Below are positions 25,396 through 47,144 of a stretch of 64,000 nucleotides of DNA, piece by piece (position 1 is the first letter of the stretch; each line of letters opens with the position of its first letter). The notes below the pieces were generated by a model. The model was not told where the DNA came from, made no database searches, and saw only the letters and a list, made by a program, of their open reading frames with translations. The position numbers were made by a program, and so were the translations under genes. Origin of the DNA: a virus; the IMG/VR virus record IMGVR_UViG_3300035696_000024, positions 26,209 through 90,208 of that record. One strand, written 5' to 3'.

Positions 25396-26265
25396 CTATA
25401 CTTTTATTGGATTATTTGTTCCTTGAATTGGGATAATAAATCCTTCACTATCGAATTGGGGCGGTTGACCCCATTTTTTTATCCATTTTTGAAATCCGTT
25501 TCTTTCGTGATTTGCCAATTCTGGTTTTCTTTGATGTAAATTATCATCTGGAAATCTACTTGCTCTTGAACCAAAGTGATAAACCACAGACCTTGCAGTT
25601 AAGACGAATTTGTAGTTTGCTAACTGCATTCGCACGAATAAATCGTAGTCTTCGTAATAAGCTGGAGCAAATAAATCGTCATTACCGCCTACAGCATCCC
25701 AATCTTTTTTCCGAATCAACCCCGACACGCCTTCTCCTTTTCTTATTTCCGTATCATTGAGCGATGAAAATTGTTCAGCATAATTGATAAAATGTTCTTC
25801 ATCAAAGTTATGATAGTATTCGCCAAACTCTTCTGGCGGAACAACAAGAGTACCCGGTCTACTTTCTTCATGAAAAATGTTTGGTTGAATTCTGTAACTG
25901 GATACCCAAATTGGAATATTGCCGTTTTTGTCTGCAATTCTTAATGCGTTTATATCCCAATCCTTCGATACAAAGAAATCAGCGTGCAGGAACATCATCC
26001 ACGGAGTTTTTACCTTGTTAGCACAAAAATTCATACCACCACCGATACCTTTGGCAACAATGTTGTTTTCTGTGTAAGGTTCAAGTTTGTAAATGTCTTT
26101 TCCCTCTTTTGTTATCCATTCATTTGTTCCATCAGTGGAATTTTCGGAATAAATGATGAATGGAGCATCTTTGAAGTAAGAATACTTCCTCACAGATTTA
26201 ACTGCCAACTTGAGATAATTCAAATTGTTAAATGTTGATATACAAAATGTTATTGGAGTCTCCAT
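25396..26265 (-). CDS. Glycosyltransferase family 2
   Basis: ENSTDGT, FLHADF, GGND..F.PAYYEDYD, VYHFGS. Confidence 0.85.
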   Translation of the reverse strand: METPITFCISTFNNLNYLKLAVKSVRKYSYFKDAPFIIYSENSTDGTNEWITKEGKDIYKLEPYTENNIVAKGIGGGMNFCANKVKTPWMMFLHADFFVSKDWDINALRIADKNGNIPIWVSSYRIQPNIFHEESRPGTLVVPPEEFGEYYHNFDEEHFINYAEQFSSLNDTEIRKGEGVSGLIRKKDWDAVGGNDDLFAPAYYEDYDLFVRMQLANYKFVLTARSVVYHFGSRASRFPDDNLHQRKPELANHERNGFQKWIKKWGQPPQFDSEGFIIPIQGTNNPIKV

Positions 26266-38411: not shown

Positions 38412-39872
38412 ATGTACATGAAATTGTATGAATTAAAGTCATTGGTAGAAGATATTGTTTTTGAAGAAATAAACAAAGACCAGTTGGCTTCTACAGCTAA
38501 AGCATTAGGACTTCCTATTGAAGAATTGAAAAAATGGGTCGAAGAAACCGACCCAACATCAAATAAGTCGTTTTCTACATGGCTACTTCGTGAACTTAAA
38601 AAACGCAGAGTAAGACTTGAGGATAATCGAAGAATAACCAATGATATAAATCGGTTCATAGAACTGAGAAATGCTAGACGAATAGAAGATATAATGCACT
38701 TTCCAACAATTCATGATTTGGAAACACGATTGGACCAATTAGCAGGTCAAGGTTCAAAAAGACAAGGATTTGCTGGAATAGATCCATCAACTCTTCCGGG
38801 TGTAAGTGTGGCAGAAAGTAGACCTGATATAACATTTTATAAAGTAACAAATCCAGATTCTTTAGCTAAAATGGGAGAAGGAACAAAGTGGTGCACCAGA
38901 TTTTCTTATAATAATAGTTCACAAGTTGCAAAAAATTATCTTGAACGTTATCCATATTTGGTTATTGGATATAAAGATGGAAAACCTTATGTTCAGTATA
39001 ATCCAGATTACAGTCAAGTAATGGATGTCAATGACCAAACGTTTCATATTCAAAATCCTGAGCAAGCAAAGTTATTGAACTTACCAAGACCTAATGTTGT
39101 AGTTCCCCCTGTTAGAAAAAGGCCGGTTAGAGGCGGCTTAACTCCAGCAGAACAGAAATTATTACAATGGTCTAAATATACAACAGAACCAGTTATCCTT
39201 CCATCTGATGCAAAAGGCAGAGATGAAGATTATGAAAGACGAGTTGCGCAAGCAATCATGAAAAGCAATGACGTTTCTTACTTAATACGTATTCTCTGTG
39301 TATTTGACCAATACGCTCAAATGTTTCTGAAAGGAAAGCGTTCTCCTGCATTTGAAAATGCTATAGTATCAAAAGATTGGACTAAATCTATTCAAGGTAA
39401 AGCTCCTAAAGCCGGTGGTAATAAATATTATGGAAAACGTTCCAAATATCCGGGATTTGACAGCATTGTTAGTTATGTGAAAAATAGTATTGGTGGCCAT
39501 TGGAGAGAATTTGAAGAAAAAATTAAAAATAATGTTCCTCTTTCTATAATGTATTACATGGGCACGGGTTTAAATCCTGATTACACTGATAATCCGTATG
39601 TAAAGGACATAATTCTATTTTCAAAATTTATTAAAGACAAACACCCTTCCGTTTCAACTTCGGAATTTGAAAAGTCTATTAGAGACTTTATTCTGAGGTC
39701 AAGAAGCAATTTAAAATACGGCGCGTTTTCTCCAGTTTTATACAAGGTACTCCTTCCTTATATGAAACTTTCAAAGAAACCATTGGAAAGTATTGTTGGT
39801 ACTAAATTAGCTAAAGAACTTATGAGGAATGCGTCATTTTCAAGAGAAGTAGGCGATTTAAATTATTCTTAA
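38412..39872 (+). CDS. Hypothetical protein with GTKWC (PcfJ-like) domain
   Basis: LYELKSLVEDIVFEE leader; DPTSNKSFSTWL; LAKMGEGTKWCT. Confidence 0.65.
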   Translation: MYMKLYELKSLVEDIVFEEINKDQLASTAKALGLPIEELKKWVEETDPTSNKSFSTWLLRELKKRRVRLEDNRRITNDINRFIELRNARRIEDIMHFPTIHDLETRLDQLAGQGSKRQGFAGIDPSTLPGVSVAESRPDITFYKVTNPDSLAKMGEGTKWCTRFSYNNSSQVAKNYLERYPYLVIGYKDGKPYVQYNPDYSQVMDVNDQTFHIQNPEQAKLLNLPRPNVVVPPVRKRPVRGGLTPAEQKLLQWSKYTTEPVILPSDAKGRDEDYERRVAQAIMKSNDVSYLIRILCVFDQYAQMFLKGKRSPAFENAIVSKDWTKSIQGKAPKAGGNKYYGKRSKYPGFDSIVSYVKNSIGGHWREFEEKIKNNVPLSIMYYMGTGLNPDYTDNPYVKDIILFSKFIKDKHPSVSTSEFEKSIRDFILRSRSNLKYGAFSPVLYKVLLPYMKLSKKPLESIVGTKLAKELMRNASFSREVGDLNYS

Positions 39873-40780
39873 TCAAGTTCTTCTTTTGGAATATCAGACA
39901 CGGCATCACAATTTTTGCCTTTATGTGGACAGTAACGGCAATTCTTTTTACCTTTTCCGGGATTCTTGAGATAAACCTTAACATCCTCTACAAATTTTCC
40001 ATCGGGTGTAAAACACTCTGTAACAAATTCGGCAAATCTATTTAATGCCCTAGCTACGGATGGTTGATTGTTCTTTGGAATAAAGGTCTGAATACGACTT
40101 TGAGGAAATGCGTAATTCTCCCAAAGCTTTCTTCTAAGAATAAAGAACTCAACGTCAATCATATCAATATTAACATTGTACTTTCTACTGAAAAATGCTT
40201 TATAGAGAAGAATTTGGGAAATTTTAGCTTCATCATCCCTTTGATAATGATTCCATCCACTTGAGGATGTTTTAATGTCAATAATTTTGTATCTACCTGT
40301 TGCTTTTTCTTTTAGAACCACGTCAATATAACAGACAAATTCCACATTATTTTTAATTGGCATTATGATTTCATCTTCAATAGCAATGAATTCATACTTG
40401 CCTGATGGAAAGTGTTTGATGCGATTGGTCATATTGGTGAAAGCTACGATGATGTTATCTCCATCCTCACAATATTCCTTGTGCAAGGCGGGGTCAACCG
40501 TGACTTTTGTATTTTTTAATTCTCTATCAAATGCTGTCTTGAAGACTTCGTGAAGGTCGTGTAAATCAGCATCTTTTGCAGATTTTTTATACAAAGTCTC
40601 AATGTAAAGTTGAATTGCTTCGTGCATCGCTGTTCCAAAGCAGGTATTTACATTATCTTCAAACTCGCGTAATCCTTTTACGTGGTCAAGATACCATCTG
40701 TGCCGGCAATTAAACCAGTTGGAGAACTGAGAGAAACTAACCCGCCTCTTTTCGTTGGTTGGTGTAGAATTTTTTTCCAT
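39869..40780 (-). CDS. PD-(D/E)XK exonuclease (RecB/AddB/Cas4-like)
   Basis: SFSQ..C, FGTAMHE, YIDVV, IIDIKTS, QILLY, CRYCPH...C. Confidence 0.85.
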   Translation of the reverse strand: MEKNSTPTNEKRRVSFSQFSNWFNCRHRWYLDHVKGLREFEDNVNTCFGTAMHEAIQLYIETLYKKSAKDADLHDLHEVFKTAFDRELKNTKVTVDPALHKEYCEDGDNIIVAFTNMTNRIKHFPSGKYEFIAIEDEIIMPIKNNVEFVCYIDVVLKEKATGRYKIIDIKTSSSGWNHYQRDDEAKISQILLYKAFFSRKYNVNIDMIDVEFFILRRKLWENYAFPQSRIQTFIPKNNQPSVARALNRFAEFVTECFTPDGKFVEDVKVYLKNPGKGKKNCRYCPHKGKNCDAVSDIPKEELD

Positions 40781-40786
40781 TAAATG

Positions 40787-40815
40787 ACTTTATCATCATA
40801 AGGAATATCTGTCAA
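40787..40815 (-). promoter_or_regulatory. Sigma70-type promoter
   Basis: TTGACA-17 nt-TAAAGT, 6 nt before ATG 40780; back-to-back with plus-strand TATTTATA at 40817-40824. Confidence 0.65.
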
Positions 40816-40831
40816 ATATTTATAGAGACTA

Positions 40832-41581
40832 ATGAAATACAGGTCTATTTTTATTTCTGATGTTCACTTAGGATTACAATATTCCAGAGTGAAAGAATTG
40901 ATTGACTTTTTAAAACAAAATGAGTGTGATACGCTTTATCTTGTTGGTGACATTGTAGATGGGTGGGCATTAAGAAGAAAATGGTATTGGAACAATGACT
41001 ATAACTTGTTGATTCAGAAGATATTAAGAAAATCAAGAAAAGGAACAAGAATTGTTTATATCCCCGGTAACCACGATGAATTTTTTAGAGAATTTGGAAA
41101 TGCATTCAATTTGGGAAATATAGAAATGGTTGACCGTGTAATTCATATCTCTCCCAATGGGAAAAAATATTTGGTTGTTCATGGGGATATTTTTGATGGA
41201 ATCCTCAACTCAATGAGTTTTATAAGTAAACTAGGTAGTTTTATATATGACATCATTCTCTACATGAATGCTGTATTCAATAAAATAAGACGAAGTATGG
41301 GAATGGAATATTGGTCGCTTTCACATTACATTAAGGTCAACACAAAAGAAGCCGTGAAATATTGTGTCAAATATGAAAAGGCAATGGTGAGCGCAGCGAT
41401 TCATGAAAAAGTTGATGGCGTCATCTGTGGCCACGTTCATTATCCTTGTCAGAAAATAATCAATGGTATAGAATACCACAATACAGGTTGCTGGATTGAA
41501 TTAGCTACTGCTATTGTGGAACATGAGGATGGAAAATTAGAACTAATAGACTTAGATTGTTATAAATTGACTTCCCCTTGA
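40832..41581 (+). CDS. Metallophosphoesterase, UDP-2,3-diacylglucosamine hydrolase (LpxH)-like
   Basis: SDVHLG, LVGDIVDGW, PGNHD, VHGD, CGHVH, NTGCW. Confidence 0.85.
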   Translation: MKYRSIFISDVHLGLQYSRVKELIDFLKQNECDTLYLVGDIVDGWALRRKWYWNNDYNLLIQKILRKSRKGTRIVYIPGNHDEFFREFGNAFNLGNIEMVDRVIHISPNGKKYLVVHGDIFDGILNSMSFISKLGSFIYDIILYMNAVFNKIRRSMGMEYWSLSHYIKVNTKEAVKYCVKYEKAMVSAAIHEKVDGVICGHVHYPCQKIINGIEYHNTGCWIELATAIVEHEDGKLELIDLDCYKLTSP

Positions 41582-41594
41582 GACGTGATATAAT
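41567..41594 (+). promoter_or_regulatory. Sigma70-type promoter of polymerase operon
   Basis: TTGACT-16 nt-TATAAT, 8 nt before ATG 41603. Confidence 0.7.
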
Positions 41595-41602
41595 TCGCCA
41601 GC

Positions 41603-41902
41603 ATGAGAATTAGTCAACTTCAATCGCTAACGGAAGAAGAACTTCAACTTCTTCTTTATGTGGTGAACATAATAGAGCCACTAACCTCTCCAAAAATAGA
41701 AATAGGTCCAAAACAATTGTTATGGTTTAAACATGATGCAATACTTTGGAAACTTTCTCAACAAGAATCAAAATTGACTCCCGAAGGACAGGTTGTATTC
41801 AAAGGATTGATGACTAAGTTAAATAAAACCGCAGTACAAGAAGCAAAAGAATATGAATATACCACAAAGCCAATATTTACACAGTCAGAGTTTCAATTCT
41901 GA
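41603..41902 (+). CDS. Hypothetical protein
   Basis: 99 aa ORF directly after promoter. Confidence 0.65.
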   Translation: MRISQLQSLTEEELQLLLYVVNIIEPLTSPKIEIGPKQLLWFKHDAILWKLSQQESKLTPEGQVVFKGLMTKLNKTAVQEAKEYEYTTKPIFTQSEFQF

Positions 41903-42439: not shown

Positions 42440-43857
42440 ACAAAAAAGAATGGATTGTTCATCTTTGGGATGATGAAAGGGGTTACAGTTCATTTGCATA
42501 TCCAAAATATGCATACAAGAAAAAAATTGGTGGAACTGAACGCTCAATTTATGGTGATGAACTGGTAAAAGTATTGAACTATAATGAGAATGACCCGGAC
42601 TTATTTGAATCTGATGTTCCTGCGGAAACAAGAATTCTCATGGATACTTACAAAGATTCGGATGAACCATCAAAAGGTCATAAAATAGGAGTCATTGATA
42701 TTGAAGTATCCACCGAAGGTGGATTTCCAAGTATGGATACTGCGAACAAGGAAATTACAGGTATTTCATTATTTGATTATTTGACTAAAACTTGTTATGT
42801 ATTTGTTCTCGACAAAGACCATAAAATCAATGACAAGGAAGAGGAAGTTGAGCCTTGGTTGCCAAAAGATTGGAAAATTTCCACCGATGAAGAAAAGCAA
42901 AAAGTAAAGATTGTCACAAAATCATTTGACGATGAAGATAATCTTTTAATAAGTTTCATGGACAAATGGCAAGAATGTGGGTTTACAATTATTACAGGAT
43001 GGAACGTGGACTACTTCGATATGCCTTATTTGTATCTTCGTTTGAAGAATTGTCTTGGCGCAAAGGCGGCTAAATGTTTGTCACCAATCGGTGCTGCTTA
43101 TGTGAACGGTTTTAGCAAGAAATTGACTCTTGGTGGAATTTCGGTTTTGGATTACATTTTATTGTATAAAAAATTCTCAGGAAAGATGGAACCAACCTAT
43201 GCTCTTGGTCCTATTGGTCAAAAGACGGTTGGTATTGGTAAAGTTCAATATCATGGTAATTTGAATGATTTATACAAGGCAGATATTCAAAAGTTTTTGG
43301 AATATAACATCACAGACGTTAAGATTGTTGTAGCTTTGGATAGAAAACTTAAATTCATTGATTTGGCTAGAAACATTTGCCATGTCGGTCACGTTCCCTA
43401 TGATAATTTCCATATGTCATCACGTTACCTTGATGGTGCAACATTGATGTATCTGAAACGCAATGGTGGTTTCATAGCTCCAAATAAACCTTCACAGGGC
43501 CGACAAGAATATGAAGACCGATTGGAAGAAGGCGAAGAGGGGTTTTCGGGTGCTTTTGTGAAGGAACCCAAACCGGGTAGATACAATTGGGTTTTTGACC
43601 TTGATTTGACTTCCATGTATCCAAACATCATCATTTCTTTGAATATATCGCCAGAAACAAAAGTGGGTAAACTGGAAAATTATTCAACTGAGGCTCATGT
43701 AAAAGGTGAGTTGACAAATTATAGAGTAGGTCAGATTGATTATACACCAGAGGAATTCAATGAATTAATTGAAAAATATAACTATTCAGTAAGTTCCAAT
43801 GGTGTTTTATATAAACAGCCTGAAAAGAAAATTGTTGGAAAAATAATAAAACGCTGA
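42418..43857 (+). CDS. DNA polymerase family B, N-terminal half (3'-5' exonuclease plus motif A); probable ATT start
   Basis: IDIEV, TGWNVDYFD, EYNITDV, DLDLTSMYP, LNISPET; frame extends upstream of track start to (I)YQNIY...VHLWDD...SIYG. Confidence 0.88.
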   Translation: MYQNIYINKKEWIVHLWDDERGYSSFAYPKYAYKKKIGGTERSIYGDELVKVLNYNENDPDLFESDVPAETRILMDTYKDSDEPSKGHKIGVIDIEVSTEGGFPSMDTANKEITGISLFDYLTKTCYVFVLDKDHKINDKEEEVEPWLPKDWKISTDEEKQKVKIVTKSFDDEDNLLISFMDKWQECGFTIITGWNVDYFDMPYLYLRLKNCLGAKAAKCLSPIGAAYVNGFSKKLTLGGISVLDYILLYKKFSGKMEPTYALGPIGQKTVGIGKVQYHGNLNDLYKADIQKFLEYNITDVKIVVALDRKLKFIDLARNICHVGHVPYDNFHMSSRYLDGATLMYLKRNGGFIAPNKPSQGRQEYEDRLEEGEEGFSGAFVKEPKPGRYNWVFDLDLTSMYPNIIISLNISPETKVGKLENYSTEAHVKGELTNYRVGQIDYTPEEFNELIEKYNYSVSSNGVLYKQPEKKIVGKIIKR

Positions 43858-43858
43858 T

Positions 43859-44257
43859 ATGAATAGAGAAATAAAATTTAGAGTGTGGGATGTGAACGAT
43901 AAGAAATATATTAAATGGTGGTTATCATTGACAGATGGCGATACAGAATTAAATGACCTTTTTAAAAAACCACATCCAAATGGAGAATATTTTGATTATA
44001 TTTTTCAACAATATACAGGTGTAAAAGATAAAAACCAAAGAGAAATTTATGAAGGTGACATTGTTAAATATTGTGAACACATAATGAATGGAGTAGAAGA
44101 ATGGCAAACGGGTGTGGTTTGTTTTTACAATGGATGTTTTTGGTTGGGTGAAGATAACGATAGAGACAAAAATGGTAAGGGAAAACCAGCATTAATGTAT
44201 TTTAATAATTTTTATCTTGAAGTTGTTGGAAATTGTTTTGAAAATATTCCATCTTAA
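43859..44257 (+). CDS. YopX family protein
   Basis: REIKFRVWD, QYTGVKDKN.REIYEGDIV, EVVGNCFEN. Confidence 0.9.
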   Translation: MNREIKFRVWDVNDKKYIKWWLSLTDGDTELNDLFKKPHPNGEYFDYIFQQYTGVKDKNQREIYEGDIVKYCEHIMNGVEEWQTGVVCFYNGCFWLGEDNDRDKNGKGKPALMYFNNFYLEVVGNCFENIPS

Positions 44258-44308: not shown

Positions 44309-44872
44309 ATGAAAAAAGGAATAAGTAAATATGATGGAAAATTTCAATTGGGAGAAGTTTTTGGAAATTGGGTAGTTACAAATCAACATGCGGTTTTTTG
44401 TAAAGATAGAAAAGAATATTGTGTAAAAGTGAAATGTAAGTGTGACCGACAAACAGAAAGATACGTTTCTTGTAGGAAACTAAAATTGGGGATATCTTGG
44501 GGGTGTGACTGTGTTAGAAGGAAACATAATAGTTGTTTTTGGAAGGGTATAGGTGAAATACCGGGACGTTATTTAAACAGAATAAAACATACCGCTGAAC
44601 TGAAAAATATAAAAATGTCTGTCAACAAAAAATATCTTTGGAAACTATTTTTAAAACAGAATAGAAAATGTTCTTTAAGTGGACTAGATATAGGTTTTGG
44701 TAGTAGTAGAAACGAAGATACTACAGCATCGCTTGATAGGATAGACTCTAATAAAGGTTACATAAAAGGAAACGTGTGGTGGGTTCACAAGAATATAAAC
44801 ATAATGAAGAATGATTTTAGTGTTGAAAAGTTTAAAGAGTTGTGTAAAATGGTAATATCGTATGGCAATTGA
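44309..44872 (+). CDS. Free-standing HNH-like homing endonuclease
   Basis: VKCKCD..GCDC DNA-binding module; KQNRKCSLSG, SLDRIDSNKGYIKGNVWWVHKNINIMK; own TATTTATT at 44273. Confidence 0.8.
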   Translation: MKKGISKYDGKFQLGEVFGNWVVTNQHAVFCKDRKEYCVKVKCKCDRQTERYVSCRKLKLGISWGCDCVRRKHNSCFWKGIGEIPGRYLNRIKHTAELKNIKMSVNKKYLWKLFLKQNRKCSLSGLDIGFGSSRNEDTTASLDRIDSNKGYIKGNVWWVHKNINIMKNDFSVEKFKELCKMVISYGN

Positions 44873-46199
44873 AATAGAATATAATGGGCAATCAAAAACA
44901 TTTCAAACAGAAGAAACGTTTAATGCTTTCTTAATAGAAAATAATTTAGAGATTGATGGTAATGGCAATATTATACAAGAAGTAGGTCGTGGAGTTATAG
45001 CAGAACTACTAAAGCGTTGGTTCCAACAACGCAAAGACATGAGAAAGAAAGCTGCTGAATTCAAAAAAGCTGGTGATATGGAACAGTATAATTTCTATAA
45101 TCAAAGACAAGCGGTTTGGAAAATCTTACTCAACTCATTTTATGGAGTTTTGGGATTGCCTGTGTTTCGTTTTTATGATGTGGATAATGCTGAAGCGGTT
45201 ACTACAACAGGTGTTGATATTATCAAAACAACTGCAAAAGCTATTAATGTTTATTACAAACAAGCATTAGAAACGGATGAAAATGGTGACTGGGTAATTT
45301 ACAGTGATACCGATTCGTGCTTTGTGGATTCAATCCCCATCATCAAGAAAAGATTTCCTGATATGGATTTGAATAATGAGGATGAAATGACAAAAGCTAT
45401 CATGAGTGTAACCACAGAGGTTCAAAGTTATGTAAATCAATTTTACAATGTAATGGCTAAACGATTTTTTAACTTGAATAAACATACGTTTGATGCTAAA
45501 CAGGAAGTCATCAGCAAATCATCATTTTGGTTGGCTAAAAAACGATATGCTCAATGGATTATCCATGAAGAAGGATCATTGTTAAAACAGCCAAGATTGG
45601 AAGTAAAAGGTATTGACGTGGTTCGTTCTTCATTTCCAGCGTCATTTCGCAAGTTTATGGATTCTTTTTTGAGAAAATTATTAACCGATGTTCCAAAAAA
45701 AGAATTGGATGATATGATTCTTAAATTTAGAGAGGAAATGAAAACCTCTGATGTTCTTGATATAGCAAAGAACACTTCTGTAAAATTTGTAAGCCAAGAC
45801 GGAACCAAAAATTATAATCCCGACAGTCGGGCACCGTTTCATTTTGAATTGGCTACTCCAGCCCAAGCTAAAGCAGCTCTGGCGTATAATGATTTGTTGA
45901 TTAAATTGGGATTGGAAAAAGAATTTGAACCAATTCATCATGGTCAAAAAATTAAATGGGTGTATTTACAAACCAACCAATACGGTCTTGAAGCTCTAGC
46001 CTTGAAGGGTGATGGAAACGACCCTGATGAAATAATAGACCTTGTAAATCAATTGGTAGATAGAAAAAAGATGTTCGAACAGGAGTTGCAATCAAAATTT
46101 TCAAATGGTAAAAAAGAAGGAATTTATGATGTATTCAAATGGACATTTCCAAATCCTTCAATGGCAACAGCTAGTAAATTTTTTGATTTTGGAGAATGA
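44862..46199 (+). CDS. DNA polymerase family B, C-terminal half (fingers, palm motifs B/C, thumb)
   Basis: KILLNSFYG, YSDTDS, KKRYA, VKGIDVVRS. Confidence 0.92.
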   Translation: MAIEIEYNGQSKTFQTEETFNAFLIENNLEIDGNGNIIQEVGRGVIAELLKRWFQQRKDMRKKAAEFKKAGDMEQYNFYNQRQAVWKILLNSFYGVLGLPVFRFYDVDNAEAVTTTGVDIIKTTAKAINVYYKQALETDENGDWVIYSDTDSCFVDSIPIIKKRFPDMDLNNEDEMTKAIMSVTTEVQSYVNQFYNVMAKRFFNLNKHTFDAKQEVISKSSFWLAKKRYAQWIIHEEGSLLKQPRLEVKGIDVVRSSFPASFRKFMDSFLRKLLTDVPKKELDDMILKFREEMKTSDVLDIAKNTSVKFVSQDGTKNYNPDSRAPFHFELATPAQAKAALAYNDLLIKLGLEKEFEPIHHGQKIKWVYLQTNQYGLEALALKGDGNDPDEIIDLVNQLVDRKKMFEQELQSKFSNGKKEGIYDVFKWTFPNPSMATASKFFDFGE

Positions 46200-46205
46200 A
46201 GAGTG

Positions 46206-46234
46206 TTGACGAAATTTGGTCATTATGATATGCT
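46206..46234 (+). promoter_or_regulatory. Sigma70-type promoter
   Basis: TTGACG-17 nt-TATGCT, 8 nt before ATG 46243. Confidence 0.65.
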
Positions 46235-46242
46235 GACCAGTT

Positions 46243-46431
46243 ATGAATAATACACCTTTAATCAATAAACAGGCAGTTAAACGAATGGCACTTGAACTTA
46301 GTAAAGCAAATCGTGGCGGTAAATTCACAAGAGTTGGAAGTGAATTTCTGATTCGCATGAATTCGATGCTTGCAGCAATTATTCGTTCAGAAGTTCATCG
46401 TCATCCAAGTATAGGTAAAACATTGAAATAA
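46243..46431 (+). CDS. Putative histone-fold protein with truncated alpha3
   Basis: LINKQAVKRMA (a1), TRVGSEF (L1), long a2, GKTLK (L2). Confidence 0.55.
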   Translation: MNNTPLINKQAVKRMALELSKANRGGKFTRVGSEFLIRMNSMLAAIIRSEVHRHPSIGKTLK

Positions 46432-46433
46432 TT

Positions 46434-46625
46434 ATGAGTGAGCAATACAATAAAGCATGGGAGAAATTCCTTGAAGAACAAGATGAAGAGGAACCTGACC
46501 TCGAAGTAGAATTTGGTGCCGCTTGGAAAGCTTGCAAGCAAGAAGTTCTAAAAATAATCGGCGAGCCAACGAAATATACTTGTTCTTACGTTGAAGAAAT
46601 AAAGAGTGAAATTGAAAAATTATAA
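46434..46625 (+). CDS. Hypothetical protein
   Basis: 63 aa acidic ORF in operon. Confidence 0.55.
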   Translation: MSEQYNKAWEKFLEEQDEEEPDLEVEFGAAWKACKQEVLKIIGEPTKYTCSYVEEIKSEIEKL

Positions 46626-46627
46626 AT

Positions 46628-46978
46628 ATGTCCATAGGAACACCATTCAGTCATTGCCCCAGATGTTGGGAACACTATGACGTGTGTAAATGCACGGAAT
46701 CAGAAATAAAAGAACATGAGGAAGATATAAAAAAGATGAAAGAAACAGATAAAACTTTTACAATCAAATGCACCATGAAAGATAGATGGGTTCCTCACTT
46801 CCTTGCCATGTTGAAGTACATGGCTTATCTTGGTAGAATTGGGTCATCGCGTCAGGTAACTTTGTATTCTGATGGAGACGGTGATTTTCATCCAAAATTT
46901 GAATGGGATGAATCATTACCAGCAGATGCTAAACCGATAATAGACAGGGGTGGCGATAGGACTTATGACGCTGGATGA
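46628..46978 (+). CDS. Hypothetical phage protein
   Basis: CPRC..CKC N-terminus; LGRIGSSR...SDGDGDFHPKF. Confidence 0.6.
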   Translation: MSIGTPFSHCPRCWEHYDVCKCTESEIKEHEEDIKKMKETDKTFTIKCTMKDRWVPHFLAMLKYMAYLGRIGSSRQVTLYSDGDGDFHPKFEWDESLPADAKPIIDRGGDRTYDAG

Positions 46979-47144
46979 AGATAATAAATCTGAAAAGTTT
47001 AATTGTCCTTGGTGTGGAGTAGAAAATATTATAAGGCCACCAGTGAGAATAGACTGGTGCAAAATATGTTGGTATTGTAAAAGAATGTTCATACATTGTG
47101 AAGGAAGAATCATGAAACTGGAGCATGACATACATCTAATATGA
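46950..47144 (+). CDS. Small Zn-ribbon protein
   Basis: CPWC...CWYC. Confidence 0.5.
   Translation: MAIGLMTLDEDNKSEKFNCPWCGVENIIRPPVRIDWCKICWYCKRMFIHCEGRIMKLEHDIHLI

Follow-up and report, generated by a model that had tools for sequence, protein, structure and literature searches.

A small phage protein family with a predicted histone fold and no alpha3

Histones were long thought to be absent from bacteria and from their viruses. Short 'alpha3' bacterial histones were characterised only in 2023–2025, and phage histones have so far been recorded only in computational catalogues (2024–2025). The subject of this description is a basic protein of 62 residues, encoded in a stretch of 64,000 nucleotides of viral DNA (positions 26,209 to 90,208 of the IMG/VR record IMGVR_UViG_3300035696_000024), hereafter the window. 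The original prediction for this locus was a candidate phage-encoded histone that coats phage DNA or silences host DNA. The whole of the evidence is read here as a DNA-binding, DNA-bending histone homodimer without the third helix (alpha3), made early and acting on replicating phage DNA; this reading is held to be probable.

Three groups of described histones stand nearest. HTkC of Thermococcus kodakarensis is a face-to-face (FtF) alpha3-truncated histone (PDB 9F2C); in the account of Schwab et al. (2024, PMC11390915), alpha3-truncated histones have an alpha3 of 3–4 residues and a shortened alpha2, and the FtF tetramer forms via the conserved R48 and N52 (logo numbering). The same account describes HBb, a bacterial dimer histone, as bending DNA. 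Its 'phage histones' (example A0A2E7QIQ9) carry an extra C-terminal helix for tetramerisation. In known histones, by that description, R and D of the RxTxxxxD motif shape the second loop (L2) and T contacts DNA (Schwab et al. 2024, PMC11390915). The viral catalogue of Liu et al. (2025, PMC13681535) is described as holding six viral clusters, with 289 non-redundant histone-fold proteins in Caudoviricetes. The clusters characterised in its descriptions include VTTHFP, with a C-terminal tetramerisation helix; VHHHFP, with a 7-residue C-terminal loop and conserved K8, K9, K47 and R48; VFFHFP, with a lysine-rich N-terminal tail; and BBVHFP, with a terminal helix (Liu et al. 2025, PMC13681535). Literature searches on phage histones found only the works of Schwab et al. 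and Liu et al.

The coding sequence occupies 46243..46431 on the plus strand (stop codon included). It is assigned from the open reading frame (ORF), homologues, codon-position pattern, profile match to HTkC and structural models. The ORF starts with ATG, and its translation is identical to the 62-residue basic protein quoted in the original prediction, with a net charge of +9 and an isoelectric point (pI) of 11.7. The start given there, 46206, marks where a promoter-like element begins; the coding sequence starts at 46243. A word-seeded search of 5.8 billion proteins returned 24 other homologues at E<=1, 59–64 residues long in 23 cases and a fragment of 48 residues in one. Differences at codon positions 1, 2 and 3 numbered 175, 115 and 324 (10 pairwise comparisons of 5 equal-length orthologues). 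Because third-position changes predominate and homologues are conserved, the 62-codon gene is real and conserved. The family match is single in four of five records, those of the window and of three relatives; in the remaining record there are two, one for each half of a doublet. One single-copy relative has 365,299 bases and is rated 100% complete. The full record of the window has 90,208 bases and an estimated completeness of 26%; given the close relative of 365,299 bases, its phage is probably a jumbo phage. The locus is present in two peat-metagenome DNA runs, one of which may be its source; no RNA run came up for it, which speaks neither for nor against expression.

The protein is very probably a histone homologue with a histone fold. 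Profile A2, built from 67 diverse singlets and compared with PDB sequences, matched the HTkC chain 9f2c_A at E 1.7e-5 (28.3 bits). Profile positions 4–58 were aligned to residues 4–53, nearly the whole chain, and the next match stood at E 0.024. For profile A5, built from 125 independently chosen members, 9f2c_A was the sole significant match (E 8.2e-5). RVS falls on RVS in the alignment, and G-KT(L) of the family on GrKT(L) of HTkC. Alpha2 is aligned to alpha2 gap-free; the stretch from RVS to G-KT is gapped by one residue, in L2. The original histone-fold reading is upheld by the HTkC profile matches, by the histone-fold chains at the top of the fold searches and by a handshake-like predicted dimer far above its controls.

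The AlphaFold2 model (from A1, a narrower profile) has a mean predicted local distance difference test score (pLDDT) of 86.3. It has a helix at residues 9–23, a loop at 24–32, a helix at 33–53 and one turn at 55–57, so that the histone core of alpha1, first loop (L1), long alpha2 and L2 is present. All four elements are encoded on the plus strand. Helix alpha1 (residues 9–23, 46267..46311) is assigned by DSSP on the model. Loop L1 (residues 24–32, 46312..46338) carries the motif R24...G-K-F28-T29-R30-V31 and is delimited by conservation, the HTkC alignment and the dimer interface. The long helix alpha2 (residues 33–53, 46339..46401) is placed by the model, the predicted dimer and the HTkC alignment. 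Loop L2 with the C-terminus (residues 54–62, 46402..46428) has the sequence H54-P55-S56-x-G58-K59-T60-L-K and is assigned from conservation and the position of chain ends.

In a VIA-align scan of 48,161 chains, which does not depend on Foldseek, every one of the top 18 rows (Z 5.5–4.1) belongs to an entry for a histone, a nucleosome, TFIID or UAF. TAF4 (1h3o_C) was matched at Z 5.5 with a root-mean-square deviation (rmsd) of 2.0 Å over 49 aligned residues, HTkC at Z 5.3 (3.3 Å, 51 residues), the Leptospira perolatii histone HLp at Z 5.0 (3.3 Å, 49 residues) and HBb at Z 4.9 (3.4 Å, 49 residues). The Foldseek list for PDB consists mostly of H3/CENP-A, TAFs, HBb and HLp, the last two at TMq 0.60–0.62. 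The scan gives consistent support for a modelled histone fold, short of proof. In an ESM Atlas language-model search the nearest 30 clusters are unnamed and mostly viral; the nearest named clusters carry PF00808 (scores 0.86 and 0.84), which is taken as a lead only.

The chain ends directly after L2. In 180 family proteins the G-x-T of L2 can be recognised; its threonine is followed by 1 residue in 19, by 2 in 112, by 3 in 20, by 4 in 6 and by more in 23. The end therefore lies 1–3 residues past this threonine in 151 of the 180. Since the ends cluster there throughout the family, the absence of alpha3 is a family trait and no truncation. The 62-residue protein ends two residues past T60, in line with these 151 relatives and with the earlier remark that it stops before alpha3. 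In the sets of 67 and 125 diverse members, R30-V31 of FTRV(G/S) is at least 90% conserved, G58 and T60 of GKT are invariant, and P55 and S56 are at least 90% conserved. The median net charge of 87 singlets is +8, and their median pI 11.0. At the FtF tetramer positions, mapped from D4GZE0 (R41, N45, T49) as far as that assembly is described, the phage protein has H52 and S56 in place of R and N.

A homodimer was predicted with a score of 0.81 in 3/3 runs; the best of 3 controls reached 0.01. At least 94% of the contacts were common to the runs, with a pLDDT of 89 or more for the partner. Of the proteins used for calibration, 20/30 solved as pairs and 1/23 solved as single chains came up to the mark, counts that are only rough here, as a custom alignment was supplied. 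In the predicted dimer the alpha2 helices cross antiparallel around residue 43 (43-43', 43-39', 47-39', 46-42'). Alpha1 of the partner is packed against the C-terminal half of alpha2 (43-12', 44-15', 47-16', 48-19', 51-20'), with alpha1 residues 12, 15, 16, 19 and 20 contacting partner residues 43–51 and with the further pairs 47-12'/15'/16'/19' and 51-16'/19'/20'. The interface holds L1 residues 27–32 and L2 residues 58–62, L1' lying beside L2. The N-terminal ends of alpha1 meet (7-7', 8-8'), and residues 6–8 of both chains touch. This geometry is what we take to be the histone handshake. On the strength of the model, the protein is quite likely to form a handshake-type homodimer. A homodimer is also the form expected of a gene present in a single copy per genome. 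A paralogous heterodimer partner was considered and rejected, as there is one family match per genome in 4/5 records and the fifth has doublet halves. The acidic 63-residue ORF downstream was likewise rejected as a chaperone or antagonist, since the first downstream ORF varies among relatives.

Two-stretch forms of 99–125 residues make up about 30 of the best 150 representatives. All 8 aligned tandem doublets share the residues F-x-R-V of L1 in their first half and S-x-G-x-T-L in their second; both motifs are kept in both halves by one of the eight (P0026). In a handshake, L1 of one half adjoins L2 of the other, so the doublet pattern keeps exactly one composite site. This motif pattern would support the handshake topology, indirectly. 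The AlphaFold2 model of a natural doublet of 113 residues (P0182) has pLDDT 84.6 and a predicted template modelling score (pTM) of 0.51. Half 1 was matched to HTkC at Z 5.3 (rmsd 1.7 Å, 48 residues) and half 2 to TAF4 at Z 5.7 (rmsd 1.9 Å, 49 residues). Two-stretch forms also occur beside family-A polymerases at loci L038–L066 (e.g. L050:6001-6336, L062:5965-6315). Many of these are incomplete doublets, in which a linker joins alpha1-L1-alpha2 to another long helix that bears the L2 motif, as though alpha1 had dropped out of the second half.

Several results weigh against the histone reading. The narrow profile A1 ranks HTkC at E 0.48, under the unrelated ribosomal protein uL24 at 0.36; the significant link to HTkC is reached only with the broader profiles A2 and A5. 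HBb, HLp and HMf-type histones gave no sequence match at E<=10 to A2 or A5 among PDB sequences. Of the 67 diverse members none matches a Pfam histone family at E<=1, and PF00808, run over the six-frame translation of the window's genome, matches nothing at E<=10. The RxTxxxxD motif is lost: T60 is invariant, the R position is the invariant G58 and the chain ends before D. The VIA-align scores are modest, with 4 chains at Z>=5 and none at Z>=8, and a Z under 8 can stem from a common helical arrangement. Neither in PDB nor among the BFVD viral models did any Foldseek match reach E<=0.001. The high dimer score may reflect memory of solved histone dimers. For the doublet P0182 (pTM 0.51) the histone folds are matched per half, with no row spanning both halves, and Foldseek gave no match to PDB at E<=0.001. 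About half of the family loci described below have no polymerase within the stretch fetched.

Compared with HTkC (59 residues), the phage family is similar in length and has alpha1, RVS at the start of alpha2, a gap-free alpha2 and G-(r)-K-T-L in L2. It differs from HTkC in an L1 six residues longer with its own conserved GKF motif, in the invariant glycine in place of the R of RxT, in the absence of alpha3 and of the closing aspartate, and in being phage-encoded, whereas HTkC is archaeal. The shortened alpha2 of the alpha3-truncated histones, as these are described, is shared, but the reduction goes further, to zero residues of alpha3. Bacterial dimer histones (HBb, which is Bd0055, PDB 8CMP/8FVX/9F0E; HLp, PDB 9QT0/9QT1) resemble the phage family in small size (56–63 residues), truncated C-terminus and a basic dimer. 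Unlike the phage family they are cellular chromatin proteins, they have no sequence match to it at E<=10 despite a structural Z of 4.9–5.0, and by their descriptions they keep RKTxxxD and a short alpha3, whereas the phage family keeps KT, with R and D gone. As in HMfA and HMfB (PF00808), there is a helix-loop-long helix-loop core with RVS in L1 and KT in L2, a likeness that the original prediction pointed out; the archaeal histone HPhA (1ku5_B) was matched by VIA-align at Z 3.5. Unlike HMfA and HMfB, the family has no PF00808 match and no alpha3. Its alpha2 is presumably about 5 residues shorter than that of HMfB, by a count against the HMfB sequence.

The published phage and viral histones, so far as their descriptions extend, are likewise alpha3-type folds of tailed phages, known from metagenomes only and described by computation only. 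Unlike the 'phage histones' and VTTHFP as described, the present family has no sequence after L2. No published viral cluster ends, by its description, at L2 with the family motifs; the family is set apart on descriptions only, and overlap is possible. The 289 Caudoviricetes histone-fold proteins reported by Liu et al. compare with 1,140 cluster representatives here. The family is a further reduced relative of FtF histones, bacterial dimer histones and published phage histones and is placed outside all three, for the published clusters by descriptions only, because alpha3 is absent, RxTxxxxD is lost and PF00808 is not matched.

The gene product would be a minimal alpha3-less histone fold of alpha1-L1-alpha2-L2. 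Two copies would interlock in a handshake, with antiparallel alpha2 helices crossing at residue 43. Each alpha1 would pack on the C-terminal half of the partner's alpha2, bringing L1 (GKFTRV) beside the partner's L2 (HPSxGKT), with the alpha1 N-termini meeting centrally. The dimer would thus carry two composite L1-L2 DNA sites, in which R30, K59 and T60 align with RVS and KT of HTkC. Binding and bending of double-stranded DNA would be non-specific, as in short bacterial and archaeal histones. DNA binding by the dimer seems rather probable, to judge from the charge of +9, the conserved loop residues and homology. The gene would be transcribed by the host RNA polymerase from an extended -10 promoter of sigma70 type, giving a leaderless or nearly leaderless mRNA early in infection. 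The proposed role is architectural, the organising of replicating phage DNA; an architectural role is likely in view of the family's position among replication, recombination and DNA-modification genes. A role on replicating phage DNA in particular is suggested by gene context only tentatively, with chances put somewhat below even. Placement in replication and DNA-metabolism modules points to replicating DNA at least as much as to the protection or host silencing originally proposed.

Directly upstream of the gene, as originally noted, lies a polymerase: the C-terminal half of a split family-B DNA polymerase (PolB; 44862..46199, plus strand; PF00136 E 2.4e-28, phrog_262 E 1.3e-72). The first ORF of the split PolB (42574..43857) holds the exonuclease domain and the start of the polymerase domain. 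Between the halves are a YopX-family gene (43859..44257, Pfam E 1.1e-16) and an ORF of 187 residues (44309..44872) with no Pfam match. In relatives PolB is in one piece of 811–911 residues. The replisome cluster of the window runs in the order PD-(D/E)XK nuclease (39869..40780, minus strand), metallophosphatase, split PolB, histone-fold gene, Mom, Macro, RFC-like AAA+ protein (50161..51144) and nucleoside 2-deoxyribosyltransferase-like protein (51407..51946, E 1.2e-9). Directly 3' of the histone-fold gene is the very acidic ORF of 63 residues (46434..46625, plus strand, net charge -9). It opens a packed series of genes on the plus strand (46434..49125), which continues with a 116-residue phrog_10928 protein, a 161-residue protein, Mom (47616..48413, plus strand, Pfam E 9.6e-54), a zinc-ribbon ORF of 57 residues and a Macro-domain protein (48559..49125, plus strand, E 4.5e-9). 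These genes are spaced by 2–3 nt or overlap, and from this tight packing they are possibly co-transcribed. An operon with nuclease, Mom and macrodomain genes had been proposed. Its Mom, Macro and tight packing are found, but the supposed nuclease, the protein of 161 residues (47141..47626, plus strand), has no significant match in Pfam, PHROGs or NCBIfam. The phage may modify its DNA, as the Mom, Macro and deoxyribosyltransferase-like genes cluster with replisome genes.

The setting recurs among relatives. Both in the window and in 17/17 loci of its clade, a PolB cluster member precedes the family gene by at most 3 ORFs, and the 116-residue phrog_10928 protein, the 161-residue protein and Mom are often found after it. 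A second clade has two-stretch forms of 98–264 residues (lengths from ORF calls with the furthest upstream start). Here one flank of the gene holds a DUF2800/PD-(D/E)XK nuclease, a 283-residue protein and an SprT-like protein, and the other flank a family-A polymerase (PolA) together with DUF5906 and sigma-like proteins. In 14 loci of this clade the gene lies directly before PolA or is parted from it by one or two small ORFs. In four loci from metagenome-assembled genomes (MAGs) the family gene adjoins a protein with a beta-clamp N-terminal domain. Counted within the stretch fetched, a polymerase or clamp-like gene is present in 37 of 79 sequences (PolB 18, PolA 15, beta-clamp-like 4), which comprise 78 loci and the window, many of them near-duplicates. 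The other 35 non-redundant loci, after six duplicate loci were left out, were scanned with Pfam for same-strand neighbours of 200–800 residues within 4.5 kb (107 proteins; ORFs under 200 residues and on the opposite strand were left out). Integrase was found in 5, ATP-dependent DNA ligase in 5, DUF932 in 4, DUF2201 in 4, PD-(D/E)XK in 4, DUF2800 in 4, cytosine methylase in 3 and ParB in 2, besides others.

The polymerase and clamp-like neighbours suit a replisome accessory, a histone-fold dimer that tethers the phage polymerase or clamp to duplex DNA and is no general chromatin protein. The histone-fold pair Dpb3-Dpb4 tethers eukaryotic polymerase epsilon to duplex DNA in this way, and the Dpb4-Dpb3 structure 5y27_B was matched by VIA-align at Z 3.8. 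The gene stands directly after PolB in the window and within 3 ORFs of it throughout the clade, before PolA in the 14 loci of the second clade and beside the beta-clamp-like gene in the 4 MAG loci. The partner, however, would have to vary by clade (family B, family A, none nearby in the 35 non-redundant loci), and a general DNA-binding role therefore fits better than a specific protein contact; moreover, the most conserved residues align with the DNA-contacting RVS and KT of HTkC. A replisome accessory is judged unlikely. Equally unlikely is its furthest extension, in which no phage-specific histone-fold family would be larger and no known working histone fold smaller, with two helices and no alpha3, and in which the protein would serve as a duplex-gripping accessory like Dpb3-Dpb4. 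If true, that would mean an accessory recruited independently of polymerase family, with the doublets and their single L1-L2 site as the minimal functional unit.

The preferred reading, a general DNA-binding histone dimer made early, also draws on the promoter region. A sigma70-type promoter-like element, TTGACG-N17-(TG)n-TATGCT, is present at 46206..46234 on the plus strand (9/12 match, TG-extended, with counterparts in relatives), its -10 hexamer ending 8 nt before the ATG. Sites like TTGACG-17-TATGCT number 60 in 12 kb, itself included, against 50.0 +/- 7.7 in shuffles; alone it is not above chance. Among 9 distinct upstream regions of close relatives, 8 have TTGAC(T/A/G), 16–17 unrelated bases and TAnnnT, mostly preceded by TG; the -10 ends 7–12 nt before the ATG in 7 of these and 19 nt before it in one. 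As the element is kept while the spacers diverge, it forms a phylogenetic footprint, and the promoter claim rests on this comparison. Transcription usually starts 6–8 nt past the -10, so a leader of 0–2 nt is predicted for the histone-fold mRNA. A sigma70 promoter of the gene's own, first proposed as leaderless, is supported by the relatives' upstream regions, with next to no leader.

Such a promoter, conserved and of sigma70 type, points to transcription by unmodified host polymerase from the outset of infection, and this would also fit a host-directed early protein that compacts or silences the host nucleoid or drives nucleoid proteins of the host off their DNA. Its strongly basic character speaks for this as well, and Mom, possibly in the same operon, could mark phage DNA as distinct from host DNA. 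No sequence feature separates host from phage DNA, however, and the family is embedded in replication modules, away from typical host-takeover genes. The host-directed role is considered a little less likely still than the replisome accessory.

Least likely is a non-histone function, a dimerising basic helical hairpin that binds protein or RNA, or a specific regulator such as a ribbon-helix-helix-like repressor: the structural Z scores are modest, the GKFTRV and HPSxGKT loops are stricter than is usual for non-specific DNA contacts, residues 6–8 of both chains touch in the predicted dimer and no Pfam histone model is matched, but two profiles match a crystallised histone full-length and significantly and nothing else, the antiparallel alpha2-alpha2' crossing and alpha1'/alpha2 packing of the predicted dimer are those of the handshake, paired alpha1 N-termini are a feature of histone dimers as well, and no ribbon-helix-helix chain is among the best 50 VIA-align rows. 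A ribbon-helix-helix reading, prompted by the pairing of N-terminal segments in the predicted dimer, was rejected on this last result and on the sequence match to a histone, short of proof.

A profile search of 1.84 billion cluster representatives places 1,140 of them in the family described here at E<=0.001, of which 359 reach E<=1e-10. For the 62-residue protein neither Pfam nor PHROGs gave a match at E<=0.1, and NCBIfam gave none either. A search of 50,697 GenBank phage records by tblastn with four divergent members gave no match in cultured phages, and blastn of the 7.5-kb region gave only short matches, in 4 GenBank phage records. Pattern-seeded scans found 68 family loci in IMG/VR viral contigs and 10 among one genome each of 185,579 species, both counts being lower bounds. 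All of the latter are MAG contigs, 5 of the 10 from Verrucomicrobia or Opitutaceae. The family ORF was recovered in 77/78 loci.

The family is thus abundant in uncultured phages and has been missed by Pfam, PHROGs and NCBIfam; a family model would allow thousands of 'hypothetical proteins' in phage metagenomes to be annotated. It indicates that the histone fold may be reduced to two helices while under strong selection. It also bears on what phage-encoded histones are for, given the consistent setting in replication and DNA metabolism and, in the window's clade, the putative early promoter of host type. The finding is new in parts, namely the very large unannotated family, the loss of alpha3, the synteny with replication modules, the asymmetric doublets and the predicted leaderless early promoter; the class as such is already known to specialists.

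Among the 7 proteins returned by a search for longer family forms is one fusion to an RlpA-like domain. This protein (P0177, 180 residues) carries the domain (PF03330, precomputed) at its C-terminus, behind a hydrophobic stretch; P0148 (178 residues) has a similar tail. P0046 (191 residues) has an N-terminal domain with an HExxH-like motif, and P0140 consists of the family domain and a hydrophobic tail. Some of these four fusions may be gene-calling read-throughs. One family member (L077) lies deep within a Verrucomicrobiae MAG contig of 1,949,154 bases, and the record of one relative (G002) is flagged as provirus; together these are hints of integrated elements and of Verrucomicrobia as hosts of part of the family.

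Across the window, a stricter promoter pattern occurs 4 times, against 1.0 +/- 0.92 in shuffles. One of the four, a sigma70-type element at 40787..40815 on the minus strand, ends 6 nt before the ATG of the PD-(D/E)XK nuclease at 40780. A further sigma70-type site, with an 11/12 match, lies at 41567..41594 on the plus strand, its end 8 nt short of the start codon at 41603. The window's phage may habitually make early transcripts that are nearly leaderless.

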